In this document: positions 36,001-42,000 of the stretch, piece by piece
Numbering within the stretch: position 1 is the stretch's first letter
Layout: each line of letters starts with the position of its first letter
Assembly: GCA_965218425.1 (NCBI GenBank)
Contig: OZ244621.1
Coordinates: forward strand, 2,048,001-2,112,000
Origin: an uncultured Candidatus Binatia bacterium
GTDB taxonomy: Bacteria; Desulfobacterota; Binatia; UBA9968; CAXXLF01
DNA length: 64,000 nt
Direction: 5' to 3'
Position numbers: made by a program

Positions 36001-39000
36001 GATGAAACGCTGGGGTGTGGTGGCACGGTACCAGGGACGGGCCACCATGGCCGAGGAGATGCCCCACGCTTACAAAGACGTGGCGGCTGTGGTAGAAACT
36101 ATGGACCGAGCGGCCATATCGAAAAAGGTCGCTCGATTTCGCCCCATTGGGGTGATCAAAGGCTAACCAAGCCAATTTGATATTCGTTGAATTTTGGATT
36201 ACTGAATCCGGGTAAAGATGACTCGCGTCCTTCGAGAACCTCAGGACCCCGAGGGGAATCGAGAGGCAAAGACGCTAAGGGCGCAAGGATAGACATCATT
36301 ACAAACTCGAAATTTGAAACAAATCCAAATGATCAAAATATATAAATTTCCAAACGATCCCGTTTCGGATTTTGATTTTTTTTAGGTTTGGCCGGTTCGG
36401 TTTGTTTGAGATTTCGAGCTTCGGATTTCGGATTTTAGTTCGGGGGCATTTCAGCGCAAATAGCTTTGTTGAAGTTCTTTCGTAGAAAATTTTATCCATA
36501 AGAATCTTGGGAACGAACCTGCGTAAATTTCGTTTATAACTAGAAAAAATGTAGGAGGAGAAGGAGATGACCTATATTATTGCGGAGCCTTGCGTGGACG
36601 TCAAAGACGCGGCCTGCGTGGATGTATGTCCGGTGGATTGCATTCACCCGACCAAGGATGAGACAGAGGAATTTGAAGAAGTAAAGATGCTTTACATCGA
36701 TCCTGAGGAATGCATCGATTGTGGAGCCTGTGAGCCCGTTTGTCCCGTGGAGGCAATCTTTGAAGAGGCCGCAACACCAGAGAAGTGGAAAAACTACATT
36801 GAAATAAATTCAGAGTGGTACCAGAAGAAAAAAGGCTGAGAGCGTTTGCTCAGCAACTCTCCGACCTGCCCATCTGAAGCCCCCATTAAAAACACATGCT
36901 AATTGGAGCCCGTCATTGGACGTGGCTCCAGGCGTGGTAGGAACTGCGCACCAACGGCCCCGATTCCACGTGCCGAAAGCCGAGCTTTTCTGCCTTCGTC
37001 TTGAGTTCCTGAAACTCATGGGGGAAAACGTACCTTTCCACCTTCAGCTGATCTGTGGAAGGTCGAAGGTACTGCCCCAGGGTGACGATATCACAGTTCA
37101 TCTGCCTCAGATCCTGGAGGGTGACCATAACCTCTTCAAGGGTCTCGCCCACCCCCAGCATCAATCCCGACTTGGTTAGTATTCCTTCCCGCATTTCTTT
37201 GGCGGCCTTTAGGATGTCCAGCGAACGCCGGTAACAGGACCCCGGCCTAACCTTTTTGTAGAGTCGAGGAACGGTCTCGATATTATGGTTCAGTATATTG
37301 ATCCCTGAGCGAACCACTGTCTCTAGGGCACGCCGGTCTCCCTTGAAATCTGGAATGAGCACTTCCACACGAATCCCGGGATTAAGGTTTTTGATCCAAA
37401 AGACAGTCTTGGCAAAATGGGTTGAGCCTCCGTCGGGAAGATCGTCCCTGTCCACGGACGTCACCACAATATGGCCTAAGCCAAGGTCTTTGACCGCAAG
37501 GCCGACTTTTCGAGGTTCTTCCGGGTCCAAAAGGCTCGGCTTGCCTTTGCTGATGGCGCAAAAGCGGCAGCCGCGGGTGCAAATATCTCCGAGGATCAGG
37601 AACGTGGCGGTGTTGTGCTCCCAGCATTCACCTGCGTTGGGGCAATGTGCCTCTTCGCAGACGGTGTGGAGGTTGTGCTTTCTCAGAATTCGCTTGAGGC
37701 GGAGGTAGTGGGCGCTGCCCGGGGCTTTGACTTTGATCCAATCCGGATGTCTTCGTGGCATAGCTTACCAATCCCTGCGTAACGAAATCGCGTGATGAAG
37801 CATTCGATGAAAGCCTCCTTTACCTTTTCCAGGTCAACCTCTTCTCCTAACTCGCGGTTCATGGATGTGACTTCGGCCCAGGGGAGACCACAGGGGATAA
37901 TCCGTTTGAAGTAAGTGAGATCGGAATTCACGTTTAAAGCTGCCCCATGATAGGTGACGCCCCTGCGCACGGCAATGCCAATGGAGGCGATTTTTTTGTT
38001 TTCAATCCATACCCCTGTCCAGGGATGACGCCTGGTGGCCGAGATGCCGAATGCCTTAAGTGTCTGGATGAGCGTCGTTTCGAGATTACGAAGGTAGGTG
38101 TGAACCTTTCTTCGAAGAGTGGATTTGAGGTCCACCAGGGGATAGACCACCAACTGGCCGGGACCGTGATAGGTGATGTCTCCTCCCCGGCCGGTTGAGT
38201 GAACGGGCACCTCACCCGGATCCAGTAGATTTTTCACTTTGCCCCCAAGGCCAATGGTATAAACATGAGGATGCTCGACCAACAGGAGGGTGTCTGCAAG
38301 TTGACCGCTCTGCTTCTGTTTGAGGAGATTTTCCTGAACAGACCGCGCGGCCGCATATTCCAACTGGCCAAGGTCATTGACGAGAAGTGTTTGCATCAAA
38401 TTAGGACCACAGGAAACCAAGGATTGTGTAACCTAAATCATGTCGTGGAAAAATTGCAACAATTGCGTGTTCTCGTCGTGCAATGCAGCAACCCACCCCA
38501 AACGGAAGGGAAGCTATGGGAGGGAGATTGGATGTTCGAGGGGGAGCCTACATCAACTCTTTGATCAGGGACTTGGCGTCTTCTTGGGAGATTCCCAATG
38601 AGCGACGTGCCATGGGCCCATCCGCCAGGACCGGTTCGAGCTGATCCAGCGCGGGTAAATCCTCGCGCTTCCAGAATAGCCCTATGGGGATCTCATCGCC
38701 CCACATGTAGGCCTTTTCCATTGCGGCCTTGAAATCTTGTGGGTCGTGTCCCATATCTTCGAGCTTTCGGGCGCGCTGTTTGAAAAAATCATGTCCGTTG
38801 TCAAGGTTGTAGGTTACGCAGGGGCTGAAGGCGTCGATGAGGGCAAAGCCTCTGTGCTCAATGCCTCCCTTGATAAGTTCGGCCAGGTGTTTGACCTGAC
38901 CCGTGTAACCTCGGGCGACGTATGTGGCCCCAGCCGCAATGGCGAGGGGAATCGGATTGATTGGATTCTCTACGCTTCCAAACGGTGTGCTTTTGGTGCT

Positions 39001-42000
39001 CATTCCCTTGATGCTGGTAGGCGAGATCTGGCCAGTGGTCAAACCATAAATTTGGTTGTCCATGACGATGTAGGTCAAATCCGCGTTTCGTCGCATGGTG
39101 TGAACGAAGTGGTTGCCCCCGATGCCATATCCATCACCGTCTCCGCCGGCGGCGATGATCTTGAGTTTGTGATTGGCCAACTGGGCGCCCGTGGCCACCG
39201 CCAGGGCTCGTCCATGGAGAGTGTGCATGCCATAGGCGTTGACGTAACCTGGCAAGTTCGATGAGCAGCCAATGCCGCTCACGGTCATCACCTCGTGGGG
39301 GTGAAGCCCCAACTCCACGATGGCTTGTTTAAGGGCGACGAGCACTCCGAAGTCGCCGCATCCGGGGCACCAGTCGGGTTCAACCAATCCTTTGAAATCT
39401 TTGACGGTTAGTTTGGGCCGTTGCAGTTGCGACCCTGTCGGCCCCCCTGCTCTGCTTTCAATTTCTGCCATGGGCGTGCTCATGATTTCTCCTCAAACTG
39501 TAATCTCGTGAACCGGTACATACTGCGTGGATTTGCCGGCAAGAATCTTTTTCACCCCGTCCACAATATGATGGGGCATGAATGGCTCGCCGTCGTACTT
39601 CCGGATGTGGCCATCCGCCTCGATGCCGGTCTCTGACCTGAGATACCTGGCAAATTGGCCGCTATAGTTGTTTTCGACGATGATGGTTTTTTTACTCTTG
39701 GAAAGAATCGAGACGATTGCCTTGGCATGAAGGGGAACGATCCACTTGATTTGAAGATGGTTGGCGACGATCTTTTCTTCTTTGAGTTGCTCCCATGCTT
39801 CGCGCATGACACCTTCGGTGGATCCCCACCCAACCAGGGTTACATTGGCTGTGGCGGGTCCGAACAGTTTGGGCGCCTTCAGCAGCGGAAGAACCCCCTT
39901 CATTTTACGCATGCGTTTCTCGTGGCTGGCCTGCCGCTTGTGGGGATTGGTGAATTCATCACTGATGAGCACGCCGTCTTCATCGTGATCATCGGTGGCC
40001 ACCACATGGACATAGCCGGGTGTTCCAGGAAGGGCGCGCGGCGATATGCCGCTCTTAGTGAGGAGGAAACGCTTATACCCGCCGTTCGCCGCAGGCGTAC
40101 TACCGTTGAGTCCAATGACTTCACCACGGTCGATGGGGACGTTGAAGTCTAAGTCTGCGGGATCCACGCTGGACCGCCCTTCGGAAAGGAGGAGATCGGT
40201 GAGGATAATGCCTGGGCATTGAAATTTGTCCACCAGATTGAAGAGCTGGGGGACTGTTTTGAAACAATCGGGGATATTGGTTGGTGCAACGATGATTCTA
40301 GGATAGTCTCCCTGACCGGCCCCCAACGCCTGCCAGAGATCACCTTGCTCGGTCTTCGTGGGAACGCCGGTGGCCGGGCCCGCTCGTTGGACATTGATGC
40401 AGACTAGAGGGATCTCCATCATTGATGCTGAGCCGAGTCCTTCGGTCATGAGGGCGAAACCGCCCCCCGAGGTGGCGCACATGGCACGGCAGCCTGCGTG
40501 TGCGGCACCCGTTGCCATATTGACAACTCCCAGTTCGTCTTCCACCTGCCGCACCATGATCCCCAACTGGCGGGCGTGTCGTGCCATCCAGTGGAGAACT
40601 CCGGTTGAAGGACTCATGGGATAGGCGCAGTAAAATTTCACACCAGCCGCCGCACCGCCCATGGCCAGGGCTTGATTGCCCTCGAAAAACGCGAGCTTTT
40701 TGCCGGTATCAGGCAGGGTAAAGGGAAACGGTTTGAAATGTCGAGCGGAATAATCGTAACCTGCCCGCGCCACCCCGACGTTTTCATCCACCACAGCCTG
40801 CCCTTTTCTTTTGAATTGGAGGGTGAGGATCTCCTCGAGGATACTGAAGTCAACCCCGATGAGTTGTAGGACGGCGGAAAGGGCAATGGTGTTTTGGACC
40901 AAGTCTCCCTTAATGGCAGGAGCCAGTTCCTTGACCGAGAAGGGACAGAGCTGTGCTCCTTCGTTGGGGGTTCCCGGTTTGATTTTGTCGCTGTTGAAGA
41001 GGATCGTGGATCCCGACTTCATGAGTCTGAGATGGCGATCCATGGTGTCCTGGTTTAAGGGAATCAGCACGTCGAGTTTGTCTCCCATGCTGAGCACGGG
41101 TTTGTCGCTGGTACGGAGCGTCAGAAAGATATGGCCGCCGCGAATAATTGACTGGTAGGCGTTGTAAGCGTTTAGGTGAAGTCCGCGGCGTACGAAAATC
41201 CGTGCCAGGATATCTCCAGGCGTTGCAATTCCCTGTCCGGCCGCGCCGCCGATTGCAATGGCAAGATCAACTTTGCTCATGGTTGTTTCCTTCAAATAGC
41301 GACCGATTTCCAGTGCAGGAGGCCGGTCCCTTCTCGTTAATACAATTTTGAATGAATACGTTCACTAGCCGTAGGCGGGTCCTAAATAGTTGGTAGTCTT
41401 TCCCACCGCTCTATCCCCAGGGAAACCGTAACCGCCCCGATAACCAACCTGTTAGCTTATAGCACTAAATTCGGTAAGCCCCAACAACTTTAGGGCCCGT
41501 TTTCAGGCACTTCCCATTCTTTATTCCTGATGGCTTACTTTTTCAAGGGGAATCGACGAAAACTTAATTATATTTACACTAACGCGAGGCGTGATGGTTA
41601 GGTTCCCTGCCTGTGGATAACTAACCAATTTAGCCCTCGTTGTCGCTATATCCTTAGCAGGGAAAGAAAGTATCACGATCCACCTTTGCAAGCCTACTTC
41701 GCCCTTTGCTCCTTGACTTGGTAGTTTGGCGGGATTATTTAGAAGTTTAAATCCGATTAGGAAAGAAGATCTATTTATGACCGGAACGATTAAGAAACTG
41801 GCGCGGGATAAAGGTTTTGGCTTCATTGTCCCCGATGATGGCGGCGATGATGTGTTTTTTCATCGGGGCAGTCTAGCTCCTAGAGGCCAATTTGAGGATA
41901 TCGACGAGGGGGACAGCGTACAGTTTCAGACTCGTAAAGGTGAAAAAGGTCCGGTGGCTTTTGATTTAAAAGTTCGATAGCAAACGCCAAAGGAGGCTTA

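Follow-up and report, generated by a model that had tools for sequence, protein, structure and literature searches.

Absence of lipoate-dependent 2-oxoacid dehydrogenase complexes from two genera of uncultured Binatia, with ferredoxin-linked enzymes as their probable replacement

Introduction

The use of 2-oxoacid:ferredoxin oxidoreductases (OFORs) in place of E2-containing dehydrogenase complexes is a pattern already known from Sulfolobus, Halobacterium, and the Aquificales. StOFOR1 and StOFOR2 of Sulfolobus tokodaii (PDB 5B48 and 5B46) and the pyruvate and 2-oxoglutarate OFORs of Halobacterium salinarum have the layout that we describe here, with a fused gamma-alpha subunit and a beta subunit that holds a single [4Fe-4S] cluster, a ferredoxin domain being absent. 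In the sections of PMC5020499 that deal with them, two-subunit archaeal OFORs are described as replacing dehydrogenase complexes in aerobes, accepting a 7Fe dicluster ferredoxin, and being relatively oxygen tolerant, and such enzymes are stated there to be known only from extremophilic aerobes. In contrast, the host considered here is a bacterium from a class in which nearly all genomes encode E2, and it carries two apparently specialised OFOR paralogs, which are only 29% identical, rather than one broad enzyme.

Two further systems combine ferredoxin-linked 2-oxoacid oxidation with retained lipoylation. The oxygen-respiring Aquificales (Aquifex and Hydrogenobacter) are described, in the relevant part of PMC10052474, as using PFOR and OGOR for 2-oxoacids and encoding Lpd, GcvH, and lipoyl-based glycine cleavage; they are thermophilic autotrophs that use these enzymes in a reverse TCA cycle and have several GcvH/LbpA paralogs, whereas a single GcvH is encoded here and the loss happened recently, in a class that otherwise bears E2. 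The mitochondrion-related organelle of Paratrimastix pyriformis is portrayed in an excerpt of PMC9746703 as keeping lipoylation for the H-protein while a ferredoxin-linked enzyme oxidises pyruvate, but this is a eukaryotic anaerobe with a salvage LplA, whereas the bacterium studied here lacks an LplA-type ligase and encodes de novo LipB/LipA together with an aerobic respiratory chain.

Results

E2 genes are absent from two genera of an E2-bearing class

The genome studied (G000) is one contig of 4,459,497 bp with a completeness of 97.33%, and the window is the 64,000-nucleotide stretch of it that was analysed. According to a preliminary description, this genome has no E2 gene and hence no pyruvate (PDH), 2-oxoglutarate (OGDH), or branched-chain (BCKDH) dehydrogenase complex. 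Our searches led to the same view. As described previously, a six-frame search with PF00198, the E2 catalytic domain, gave 0 matches (E ≤ 10) in the whole genome, with 10 of 14 control genomes positive, and nothing in G000 exceeded the E3_binding cut-off. When six E2 proteins of relatives were compared with G000 by tblastn, the sole match was between a lipoyl and a biotinyl domain (E = 0.005), and the relatives' aceE, aceF, and lplA-like proteins gave no match. Further, sucA was not found, a Transket_pyr search yielding dxs, tkt, and E1 beta only, and the single PF00676 match is E1 alpha. With no E2 of any type, no PDH, OGDH, or BCKDH complex can be assembled.

E2, aceE, sucA, and lipoyl domains other than that of GcvH were likewise not found in G001 and G002; the three genomes (96-97% complete; 1, 7, and 2 contigs) represent two genera, g1 and g2. 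Across the class, E2 is present in 347 of 350 genomes with a completeness of 90% or more, and these three are the exceptions. The loss had been described as clade-wide. This holds for these two genera but not for genus g3 of the same family, in which G004 has an E1 alpha-E1 beta-E2 contig with the GC content of the rest of that genome and an E2 77% identical to that of a relative. Both g3 genomes also encode an 82-amino-acid free lipoyl-type protein, and this sister genus probably keeps one E2 and the free lipoyl protein.

The contrast with the order (123 genomes; some of the counts draw on unpublished genomes, G093 in particular) is real in that PF00198 is present in 117 and aceE (PF17831) in 107, compared with aceE in 0 of 5 genomes of family f1. 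It is, however, smaller than was implied, because sucA occurs in only 31 and an ortholog of the second OFOR (OFOR2) is near-universal. The absence of sucA from 92 of 123 genomes indicates that OFOR-based 2-oxoglutarate oxidation is the norm in the order, and the clade-specific loss is that of the aceE-type PDH and the E2s linked to E1 alpha/beta.

Lipoylation machinery is retained with GcvH

Of the seven PF00364 matches in G000, two are biotinyl domains (EAMKME), four lie in HlyD-like membrane-fusion proteins, and the seventh is GcvH, which, as had been proposed, is the only lipoyl-protein detectable by domain searches in G000, G001, and G002. The reported retention of LipA and dihydrolipoyl dehydrogenase (Lpd) was also confirmed; Lpd scores 522.6 bits (cut-off 408.8) but shares only 36% identity with its operon-linked counterpart in G105. 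G000 has one LipB, one LipA, and a complete folD-gcvT-gcvH-gcvPA-gcvPB operon, and the PF21948 search revealed no LplA-type ligase, lipB being the sole member of that family in the genome. LipB would transfer octanoate from acyl-ACP to GcvH, LipA would then insert the sulfurs, and the separately encoded Lpd would act as the L-protein of the gcv system, in which case lipoylation would serve glycine cleavage only.

OFOR1 adjoins lipB and lipA where relatives carry a PDH block

The first OFOR (OFOR1) is encoded on the minus strand of the window. Its alpha subunit (39493-41295; 600 amino acids, TTG start) is of the fused gamma-alpha type, scores 584.1 bits with TIGR03710 (cut-off 482.75), and contains the POR and POR_N domains but no Fer4 domain. 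The beta subunit (38548-39483; 311 amino acids; TIGR02177, 353 bits, cut-off 261.9), with TPP_enzyme_C and PFO_beta_C domains, is the subunit for ThDP and the single [4Fe-4S] cluster. A 151-nucleotide spacer (38397-38547, minus strand) separates its stop codon from the lipB ATG.

The lipB gene (37683-38396, minus strand; PF21948, 160.6 bits; TIGR00214, 180.4 bits, cut-off 83.55) encodes the octanoyl/lipoyl transferase. That the gene caller had overlooked it was evident from the six-frame PF21948 match at C1:2085797-2086357, which we reproduced exactly (161.1 bits) in an intact frame. The longest open frame begins at TTG 38420 (37683-38420, 245 amino acids), but matches to the relatives' LipB begin at residue 8-9, and the likely start is ATG 38396, giving 237 amino acids as in relatives. 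The motifs RGGDITYHGPGQ, KKIASIG, and PCGL align to Thermus LipB (2QHS). Downstream, lipA (36913-37761, minus strand; 282 amino acids) encodes a lipoyl synthase (TIGR00510, 386.6 bits, cut-off 310.25) with the motifs CX4CX5C, CX3CX2C, and RSSY. The 3' end of lipB and the 5' end of lipA overlap out of frame by 79 nucleotides (37683-37761, minus strand). The same overlap, with a 237-amino-acid lipB and a 282-amino-acid lipA, was obtained by greedy open reading frame calls in G114, G052, G105, and G092, and G001 shows it with a 238-amino-acid lipB; the overlap is likewise present in G093 and G036, where the lipB frames simply extend upstream.

Convergent with lipA lies a gene for a dicluster ferredoxin of the 7Fe-type pattern (36567-36839, plus strand; 90 amino acids; Fer4, 44.4 bits; Fer4_7, 39.4 bits), which may accept electrons from OFOR1, reduce LipA, or do both. 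Its position is kept in G001 (90%), G002 (83%), and G003 (81%), and a ferredoxin gene adjoins lipA or lipB also in G052, G050, G022, and G007. A terminator-like hairpin between lipA and the ferredoxin gene (36835-36854, minus strand) is weak evidence for a transcript end because such sites occur in the region at chance level.

In the canonical arrangement (G114, G105, and G007), an aceE-aceF-lpd operon accompanies a lipB-lipA pair that has the 79-nucleotide overlap and flanks orthologous to those of G000, whereas G000 lacks aceE, aceF, the operon-linked lpd, and the lplA-like ligase gene. In G105 and G036, the row is OFOR1 alpha-beta, lplA-like, aceE, E2, E3, lipB, lipA, so that four genes occupy the OFOR1 beta-lipB interval; in G094, the order is aceE-E2-OFOR1 alpha-beta-E3-lipB-lipA. 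Remnants of the lplA-like and PDH genes were sought in the 151-nucleotide spacer, and none was detectable. The adjacency of lipB-lipA to an OFOR, noted earlier, is borne out; it is best explained by the disappearance of this block rather than by selective retention.

An OFOR beta-lipB-lipA row is found in seven genomes of five genera (G000, G001, G002, G003, G092, G093, and G110). In a maximum likelihood tree of LipB and LipA, the seven fall on one side of a branch with support 73/78 (93/84 for f1 with g20), and neighbour-joining support for a single origin is 21%; a single origin of the row is only moderately supported. G110 has the row yet retains aceE-E2-E3 elsewhere, suggesting that relocation, not deletion, may have come first.

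We infer the order and number of losses from these gene orders. An ancestral supercluster would have comprised OFOR1 alpha-beta, the lplA-like ligase, aceE-aceF-lpd, and lipB-lipA; loss of the ligase and PDH block would have placed OFOR1 directly upstream of lipB-lipA, and the remaining E2 genes (E1 alpha/beta-linked and lone types) would have been lost later. OFOR1 alpha-beta and lipB-lipA are probably one transcription unit, ending at the hairpin shared with the convergent ferredoxin gene.

We also considered whether OFOR1, lipB, lipA, and the ferredoxin gene form a selected module in which ferredoxin reduced by OFOR1 feeds the radical-SAM lipoyl synthase. No terminator-like site was found between OFOR1 beta and lipB, the row is stable across its five genera, and in f1, f2, and g13 alike a ferredoxin gene neighbours lipA or lipB, although f2 and g13 have OFOR1 elsewhere or not at all. 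The occurrence in f2, which has no OFOR1, suggests that any ferredoxin-LipA link is independent of OFOR1; together with the four genes intervening in relatives and the many genomes whose lipB-lipA has neither OFOR nor ferredoxin within 1.5 kb, it renders an adaptive adjacency unlikely.

Two OFORs are candidates for pyruvate and 2-oxoglutarate oxidation

POR_N identifies two real OFORs in G000, the third, weak match being ilvB. OFOR1 has orthologs with 80-92% identity in f1 and in the majority of f3 genomes but in 0 of 28 from f2. We note that OFOR1 is present in 11 of the 16 aceE-less genomes; the other five comprise three whose completeness does not exceed 71% and two in which a lipB match is missing as well. 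OFOR1 would convert pyruvate, and probably other monocarboxylic 2-oxoacids, to acyl-CoA, and OFOR2 would convert 2-oxoglutarate to succinyl-CoA, as in most of the order, each reducing a ferredoxin.

The 2-oxoglutarate:ferredoxin oxidoreductase of Magnetococcus marinus works physiologically in the reductive direction. Its structure (PDB 6N2N/6N2O) provides the closest solved chains to OFOR1 (6N2N_A to alpha, 317 bits; 6N2N_B to beta, 270 bits) and to OFOR2 (alpha, 238 bits; beta, 163 bits), all aligned nearly full-length. Both OFORs are thus nearest to a 2-oxoglutarate enzyme, an observation that runs against a substrate split. At the positions of StOFOR1 Asp468-alpha and Lys49-beta, OFOR1 has Asp and Asn, OFOR2 has Ser and Lys, and the Magnetococcus enzyme has Leu and Arg. 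The K49I substitution abolishes 2-oxoglutarate activity of StOFOR1, as reported in PMC5020499. The pocket residues give a mixed picture, OFOR1 retaining the Asp whose mutation in StOFOR1 abolishes 2-oxoglutarate use.

The statement that the two OFORs must carry the 2-oxoacid steps is right about their presence but too strong in its "must": G000 encodes 16 full-length POX/ALS-family paralogs including ilvB, and one of the other 15 ThDP enzymes, or the E1 alpha/beta pair with another acceptor, might handle pyruvate and/or branched-chain 2-oxoacids. The E1 pair had been regarded as an orphaned leftover; instead, it is an order-wide pair, detected at E ≤ 1e-60 in 110 of the 123 genomes, mostly with 54-68% identity in the best match, and with no E2 within 1.5 kb in any of the seven loci examined. 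Despite the lack of E2, it is conserved as well as OFOR1 is, with 91-93% identity between G000 and G001. Against such roles, none of the 15 enzymes exceeds the pyruvate-oxidase cut-off (the best scores 286 bits against 742), the E1 pair does not reach the PDH equivalog cut-offs and lacks a lipoyl partner, and no enzyme other than OFOR1 has a distribution complementary to that of the aceE-type PDH. We therefore regard this route as improbable and favour the two OFORs.

Discussion

Could the apparent absence of E2 and PDH genes be an assembly artefact, caused by a genome that is not closed or by contigs that were collapsed or left unbinned? An earlier caveat that the contig ends lie in a duplicated stretch proved justified: 5,096 bases at the start and 13,102 at the end of the G000 contig are inverted copies of C1:3,289,962-3,306,887, so closure of the assembly is unproven. 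Completeness is below 100%, and the only E2 of G004 sits on a 4.6-kb contig of the kind that easily drops from bins. However, the same genes are lacking from all three near-complete genomes of two genera, and the DNA is continuous at the site of the relatives' PDH block in G000, G001, G002, and G003. Runs from two further studies yielded contigs that span the OFOR1 beta-lipB junction with zero differences, and contigs covering the 151-nucleotide spacer come from runs X1, X2, and X4 (three studies in all). We consider such an artefact very unlikely. Equally hard to credit is a mainly reductive role, in which the OFORs would assimilate CO2 by synthesising pyruvate and 2-oxoglutarate and which their kinship to the reverse-TCA enzyme of Magnetococcus might suggest, since the citrate-binding domain of ATP-citrate lyase was not found in G000, G001, and G002 (a search run without a positive control), sucC is present, COX1 and NuoF were found as expected from the aa3-type oxidase and complex I already reported, and the phylum is described, in a published genomic analysis (PMC8262859), as aerobic methylotrophs and alkane degraders.

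Overall, we consider it probable that g1 and g2 lack the complexes, that the PDH block was lost between OFOR1 and lipB, that lipoylation is confined to GcvH, and that OFOR1 and OFOR2 have the roles proposed. In a small set of aerobic, uncultured Binatia, all lipoate-dependent 2-oxoacid dehydrogenase complexes have been lost; judging from sequence, pyruvate and 2-oxoglutarate are most likely oxidised by two ferredoxin-linked enzymes, and lipoate synthesis is apparently kept for glycine cleavage only.

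Results

We searched the genome studied here (G000), a single contig (C1) of 4,459,497 bp that is 97.33% complete, for the components of the 2-oxoacid dehydrogenase complexes (E1, E2 and E3 of PDH, OGDH and BCKDH). A six-frame search for the catalytic domain of E2 (PF00198) returned no match at E<=10, with 10 of the 14 controls ringing, and no E3_binding domain scored above its cut-off. The seven PF00364 matches in G000 comprised two biotinyl proteins (EAMKME), four HlyD-like membrane-fusion proteins and one GcvH, and none was a DKA-type lipoyl domain on an E2 or a free carrier; because one of the two strongly matching proteins is encoded in an acyl-CoA carboxylase operon and the other beside an OAD_beta decarboxylase, both are biotin carriers. 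Further, aceE (PF17831) was not found in G000; PF00676 matched a single gene, an E1 alpha; Transket_pyr matched only dxs, tkt and an E1 beta gene, indicating that sucA is missing; and LipB was the sole PF21948 match, indicating that an LplA/LipM-type ligase is missing as well. As a divergent E2 might escape the domain model, we also conducted tblastn searches of G000 with six E2 proteins from relatives, representing three types, which gave no match to a catalytic domain, and with the aceE, aceF and lplA-like proteins of the relative G105, which gave nothing to any catalytic domain. The best match in these searches joined a lipoyl to a biotinyl domain at E=0.005. The view of the preliminary description that G000 has no E2, and that GcvH is its only lipoyl protein, thus stands.

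The glycine cleavage system is complete in G000 (T, H, P in two subunits, and L), with folD-gcvT-gcvH-gcvPA-gcvPB at C1:3355262-3360542 and a single true GcvH (PF01597 162 bits; lipoyl-lysine motif ESVKAVS). Lpd, the E3 reported earlier as retained, is indeed encoded at C1:3420338-3421711 and is the only protein in G000 that passes TIGR01350 (522.6 bits; cut-off 408.8). Its identity to the lpd of the PDH operon of G105 is only 36%, which indicates that the retained Lpd is a different paralog from the operon-linked one. G000 encodes COX1 (506 bits), two NuoF homologs and sucC (528 bits). It also has another COX1-family gene, a divergent one, at C1:2270045-2271382 (192 bits; open frame of 772 aa). 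ATP-citrate lyase was not found in G000 or its relatives G001 and G002, a weak negative since 0 of 14 controls rang. Two other relatives, G003 and G004, which form genus g3, have SucC-like paralogs restricted to that genus (about 250 bits to sucC; G003 C5:1583-2770, G004 C315:2318-3505 and G004 C171:788-1975) with weak Citrate_bind matches, and these could be citryl-CoA or malyl-CoA synthetase-like enzymes.

The concern that the chromosome may not be closed was borne out. The contig begins with 5,096 bases (C1:1-5096) and ends with 13,102 bases (C1:4446396-4459497) that repeat, in inverted orientation and with 99.95% identity or more, parts of C1:3,289,962-3,306,887, an internal region of about 17 kb with a multi-copy repeat of about 0.75-1 kb, and closure is therefore unproven. 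The duplication could reflect mis-assembly or an IS-mediated event.

ORF listing combined with Pfam and NCBIfam scans identified four co-directional minus-strand genes in the window. These encode the alpha subunit (39493-41295; 600 aa; POR and POR_N domains; TIGR03710 584.1 bits, cut-off 482.75) and beta subunit (38548-39483; 311 aa; TIGR02177 353 bits, cut-off 261.9) of a 2-oxoacid:ferredoxin oxidoreductase, referred to here as OFOR1, then LipB (open frame 37683-38420; PF21948 160.6 bits; TIGR00214 180.4, cut-off 83.55; NF010925 190.7, cut-off 155) and LipA (36913-37761; TIGR00510 386.6 bits, cut-off 310.25). The lipB gene had been described as overlooked by the gene caller, and its family-model scores, motifs and open frame indicate that it is real and intact: LipB matches Thermus LipB (2QHS) with 148 bits, RGGDITYHGPGQ, K-I-A-S-I-G and P-C-G are conserved, and the Lys of K-I-x-S-I-G and the Cys of P-C-G, the catalytic residues, both line up with 2QHS. 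The sequence, together with relatives' matches that begin at residue 8-9, places the lipB start at the ATG at 38396, giving 237 aa as in relatives. In the LipA translation we found CX3CX2C and CX4CX5C, the radical-SAM and auxiliary cluster motifs, respectively, as well as the C-terminal RSSY motif.

The lipB and lipA genes share an out-of-frame overlap of 79 nt (37683-37761). Greedy ORF calls gave an identical overlap in G114, G052, G105, G092 and G001, and the 79-nt overlap also occurs in G093 and G036, where the lipB frames extend farther upstream. We note that this length is kept although the LipB proteins of the relatives are only about 56-67% identical; hitch-hiking on a conserved LipA N terminus, translational coupling or a frameshift-made fusion are possible causes.

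Tail-to-tail with lipA, on the plus strand, lies a gene for a 90-aa dicluster ferredoxin (36567-36839; Fer4 44.4 bits; cysteine pattern CxxxxxxxCxxxCP ... CxxCxxCxxxCP). A terminator-like hairpin between the two genes (36835-36854) is weak evidence, as promoter and terminator scans of the region gave counts at chance level (3 vs 2.9; 6 vs 6.1). The ferredoxin gene adjoins lipA in G001, G002, G003, G052 and G050 and lipB in family f2, and this neighbourhood is kept in f1 (the family of G000), f2 and genus g13, including genomes without OFOR1. The ferredoxin is a candidate partner of OFOR1, LipA or both. G000 has a ferredoxin paralog at C1:287942-288181. An archease-RtcB RNA ligase gene pair (34291-36166, plus strand) and a cold-shock protein gene (41726-41980, plus strand) border the cluster, and a neighbourhood of archease/RtcB, 4HBT thioesterase and class IV aminotransferase genes is also seen in G001 and G002.

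Synteny mapping across the order revealed lipB-lipA as a fixed pair with a variable upstream neighbour. In G105 and G036, and also in G037 and G101 judging by coordinates, a supercluster reads OFOR1 alpha, OFOR1 beta, a divergently transcribed lplA-like ligase, aceE, aceF, lpd, lipB and lipA. In G094 (C73:2299-9970; loci L057 and L078), OFOR1 alpha and beta are set between aceF and lpd (aceE-aceF-OFOR1ab-lpd-lipB-lipA); in G114, G112 and G095, the PDH block is present and OFOR1 is not adjacent; and in f2 (G007 and G022), the lplA-like gene, aceE-aceF-lpd and the ferredoxin gene are followed by a convergent lipB. OFOR1 beta directly precedes lipB-lipA in seven genomes, namely G000, G001, G002 and G003 of f1, G092 and G093 of genus g20, and G110 of genus g25. 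The order in the window is therefore that of the supercluster minus its four middle genes, and we propose that the PDH block and the lplA-like ligase would have been lost from between OFOR1 and lipB-lipA, which agrees with the different paralog of Lpd and the missing lplA-like ligase in G000.

The 151-nt spacer left between OFOR1 beta and lipB in G000 showed no remnant of E3, E2, aceE or lplA-like genes (tblastn, nothing below E=0.05), and the junctions of the seven genomes, whose lengths vary (65-144 nt), share no obvious common sequence by eye. Contigs from the runs of three studies, one of which may be the source sample, span the spacer with zero differences. For a maximum likelihood tree of LipB plus LipA we used 26 rows, excluding four genomes in which a contig end truncates lipA (G113, G051, G102 and G087) as well as f2, whose lipA is non-adjacent. 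The seven genomes were placed together to one side of a branch (support 73/78); f1 plus g20 received 93/84, and genus g1 (G000 and G001) plus genus g2 (G002) received 98/94. A neighbor-joining tree grouped the seven with 21% support. The trees are compatible with a single origin of the OFOR-lipB-lipA order. Because G110 retains aceE-E2-E3 on another contig, relocation may have preceded loss.

We then asked how wide the loss is. PF00198 occurs in 117 of 123 genomes of the order; the six without it are G000, G001 (96% complete), G002 (97%, two contigs), G003 (81%) and two genomes of family f3 (86% and 78%). Among the genomes of the class that are at least 90% complete, it occurs in 347 of 350, the exceptions being G000, G001 and G002. 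In G001 and G002, all strong PF00364 matches are MKM-type, and a lipoyl-type lysine context is found in GcvH only. G004 carries E1a-E1b-E2 on a 4,649-bp contig; the GC content of this contig (0.52) matches that of other G004 contigs, and the E2 shares 77% identity with its E1b-linked counterpart in G093. Further, G003 (C624:9987-10208; locus L097) and G004 (C239:13003-13227; locus L096) encode a lipoyl-type protein of 82 aa that stands alone (VETDKVNVEIE), with an alpha/beta hydrolase of 364 aa encoded right after it. The lipoyl-type protein and hydrolase, found in g3 and not in G000, G001 or G002, resemble a split AcoC-type E2. The loss of E2 that had been called clade-wide is thus established for two genera, g1 and g2, and not for the whole family, since g3 has an E2 in G004 and the lipoyl-type protein.

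The genes for the other components put this loss into context. We detected sucA in 31 of the 123 genomes of the order, all in f3 (0/28 in f2, 0/5 in f1), leaving 92 without it, and aceE in 107 of 123 (0/2 in g20), which indicates that most of the order has an aceE-type PDH and no OGDH. We conclude that the speciality of f1 is the loss of the aceE-type PDH and that g1 and g2 have also lost the remaining E2s. The counts take in unpublished genomes (G093, G051, G054 and G073 in the order; G303, G267, G268, G262, G175 and G226 in the class), and statements on g20 rest partly on the unpublished G093. Lone E2 genes without a neighbouring E1 occur in G093 (C513, locus L081), G094 (C235, locus L082) and G110 (C43, locus L083), adjoining M24 peptidase and ABC transporter genes; that of G110 is a 234-aa ORF with the catalytic domain only and no lipoyl domain. 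In the small-genome families f14, f16 and f17 (e.g. G354-G356), PF00198 matches are weak (E about 1e-7 to 1e-14 or 1e-33 to 1e-38), and these families could represent additional E2-poor lineages.

About 27 kb upstream of the window, G000 encodes an E1 alpha (C1:2020467-2021480) and an E1 beta (C1:2019102-2020055), flanked by genes for a LigXa-like Rieske oxygenase, a GFO/IDH/MocA oxidoreductase and a TctA transporter. This pair had been described as a remaining orphan. Neither subunit reaches its PDH equivalog cut-off (254.9 vs 393.85 and 279.5 vs 321). The E1 alpha has matches at E<=1e-60 in 110 of the 123 genomes of the order (91% identical in G001, 54-68% for the best match of most others), E1a and E1b were adjacent with no E2 within 1.5 kb at all seven relatives' loci examined, and the pair is only 28.5% identical to the E2-linked E1 alpha of G004. 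We therefore consider it an old, conserved, E2-unlinked pair and not debris of lost operons. It is conserved in genomes whose sole lipoyl acceptor is GcvH. The alpha-beta spacer is 411 nt in G000 vs about 20-170 nt in more distant relatives. The split E1 alpha of G002 (C2:1912892-1913820, locus L141; see also locus L064) was considered as a pseudogene, a reading rejected as uncertain: genes nearby are split as well, and several genes of G002 (E1 alpha, Rieske, RtcB and Aldedh) are broken across frames, probably by indel errors of the long-read, two-contig assembly, which makes pseudogene calls in G002 unsafe.

A second OFOR (OFOR2) is encoded elsewhere in G000 (C1:2416765-2419604), with its alpha subunit at C1:2416777-2418555, 29% identical to OFOR1 alpha. 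Its alpha model score (538 bits) is above the cut-off and its beta score (205.6 bits) below it (261.9). None of the four OFOR1 and OFOR2 subunits contains a Fer4 domain by Pfam, and neither enzyme reached a substrate equivalog model. A search with OFOR1 alpha told three OFOR types apart: OFOR1 orthologs (80-92% identical) are found in f1, in most genomes of f3 and in 0/28 of f2; OFOR2 orthologs occur in nearly every genome of the order; and a third type, 35% identical to OFOR1 alpha, occurs in some f3 genomes. With sucA in few genomes and OFOR2 near-universal, oxidation of 2-oxoglutarate by an OFOR is likely the norm of the order.

OFOR1 and OFOR2 are closest to the Magnetococcus OGOR 6N2N, followed by the Sulfolobus tokodaii OFORs. 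In the portions of Yan et al. (2016, PMC5020499) that concern specificity, that of StOFOR1 is described as shaped by Asp468-alpha, Lys49-beta and Leu123-beta; K49I and D468A abolished 2-oxoglutarate activity and not pyruvate activity, and the 2-oxoglutarate-specific KorAB has Leu at 468. In our alignments, positions 468/49 are Asp/Asn in OFOR1, Ser/Lys in OFOR2 and Leu/Arg in 6N2N, and position 123 is Leu in all three. The signals from these residues are mixed: OFOR2 looks closer to a 2-oxoglutarate enzyme, and OFOR1, which lacks a positive charge at 468/49 and has one negative charge there, looks closer to a monocarboxylate enzyme.

The distribution of the genes points in the same direction. 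OFOR2 is universal where sucA is missing, and OFOR1 was found in 11 of the 16 genomes without aceE (ten via the alpha subunit, G003 via the beta subunit). The other five comprise three genomes of no more than 71% completeness (G033, G047 and G069) and two, G004 and G019, for which the lipB search was also negative. Gene distribution thus suggests that OFOR1 would serve pyruvate and OFOR2 2-oxoglutarate. The stronger claim that the OFORs must carry the 2-oxoacid steps is weakened by 15 other full-length ThDP enzymes in G000. These belong to 16 POX/ALS-family proteins including ilvB (the others at loci L118-L132; for example C1:322956-324788, C1:2034031-2035836 and C1:4333155-4334867). Twelve of the 15 fall below every NCBIfam cut-off, three pass generic 'TPP-requiring protein' models only, and none comes near the pyruvate-oxidase cut-off. 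The set is unusually large.

Discussion

OFOR-based oxidation of 2-oxoacids is known in oxygen-respiring microbes, another case being KorAB of M. tuberculosis. In the usual account, as summarized in part of one report, aerobes swapped oxygen-sensitive OFORs for NAD-linked dehydrogenase complexes, and the same source describes demonstrated PFOR activity in aerobic cyanobacteria (PMC8887894). Excerpts of other studies describe PFOR and OGOR alongside Lpd and GcvH in Aquifex (PMC10052474) and an organelle of Paratrimastix that uses PFO and keeps a lipoate ligase for GCS-H (PMC9746703), and the two-subunit OFORs of Sulfolobus, Aeropyrum, Halobacterium and Hydrogenobacter are called relatively oxygen tolerant in the sections consulted of PMC5020499. 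The papers searched gave nothing on this subject for Binatia: in its main text, the Binatota genome paper (PMC8262859) has no occurrence of pyruvate, oxoglutarate, 'lipo' or 'ferredoxin oxidoreductase', and a literature search for Binatia with ferredoxin oxidoreductase returned, in the portions of text retrieved, only surveys in the field, made in prawn ponds and in wheat soil. OFOR-only oxidation is thus already known; what we add is a replacement that is datable and stepwise and whose intermediates survive, which can be traced gene by gene because the intermediate gene orders survive in relatives.

For annotation, our results mean that lipB here is a real gene missed by the gene caller and that the conserved E2-less E1 pair should not be called pyruvate dehydrogenase. 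We also considered that ferredoxin, not NAD+, takes all 2-oxoacid electrons, with the 7Fe-type ferredoxin encoded tail-to-tail with lipA as the common partner of OFOR1 and the radical-SAM lipoyl synthase. We think this unlikely; if true, it would imply some route from reduced ferredoxin into the aerobic chain of a presumably non-extremophilic, oxygen-respiring host, and oxygen-tolerant (alpha-beta)2 OFORs would extend beyond extremophiles. As a bolder corollary, the E2-less E1 pair would use lipoyl-GcvH or a non-lipoyl acceptor.

Overall, OFOR1 and OFOR2 are candidate oxygen-tolerant OFORs of a presumably non-extremophile bacterium. Most of the order (the 92 of 123 genomes without sucA) probably already uses a two-subunit OFOR for the 2-oxoglutarate step, and a recent, well-delimited lineage within a class that bears E2 has reversed the usual direction from OFOR to dehydrogenase complex.
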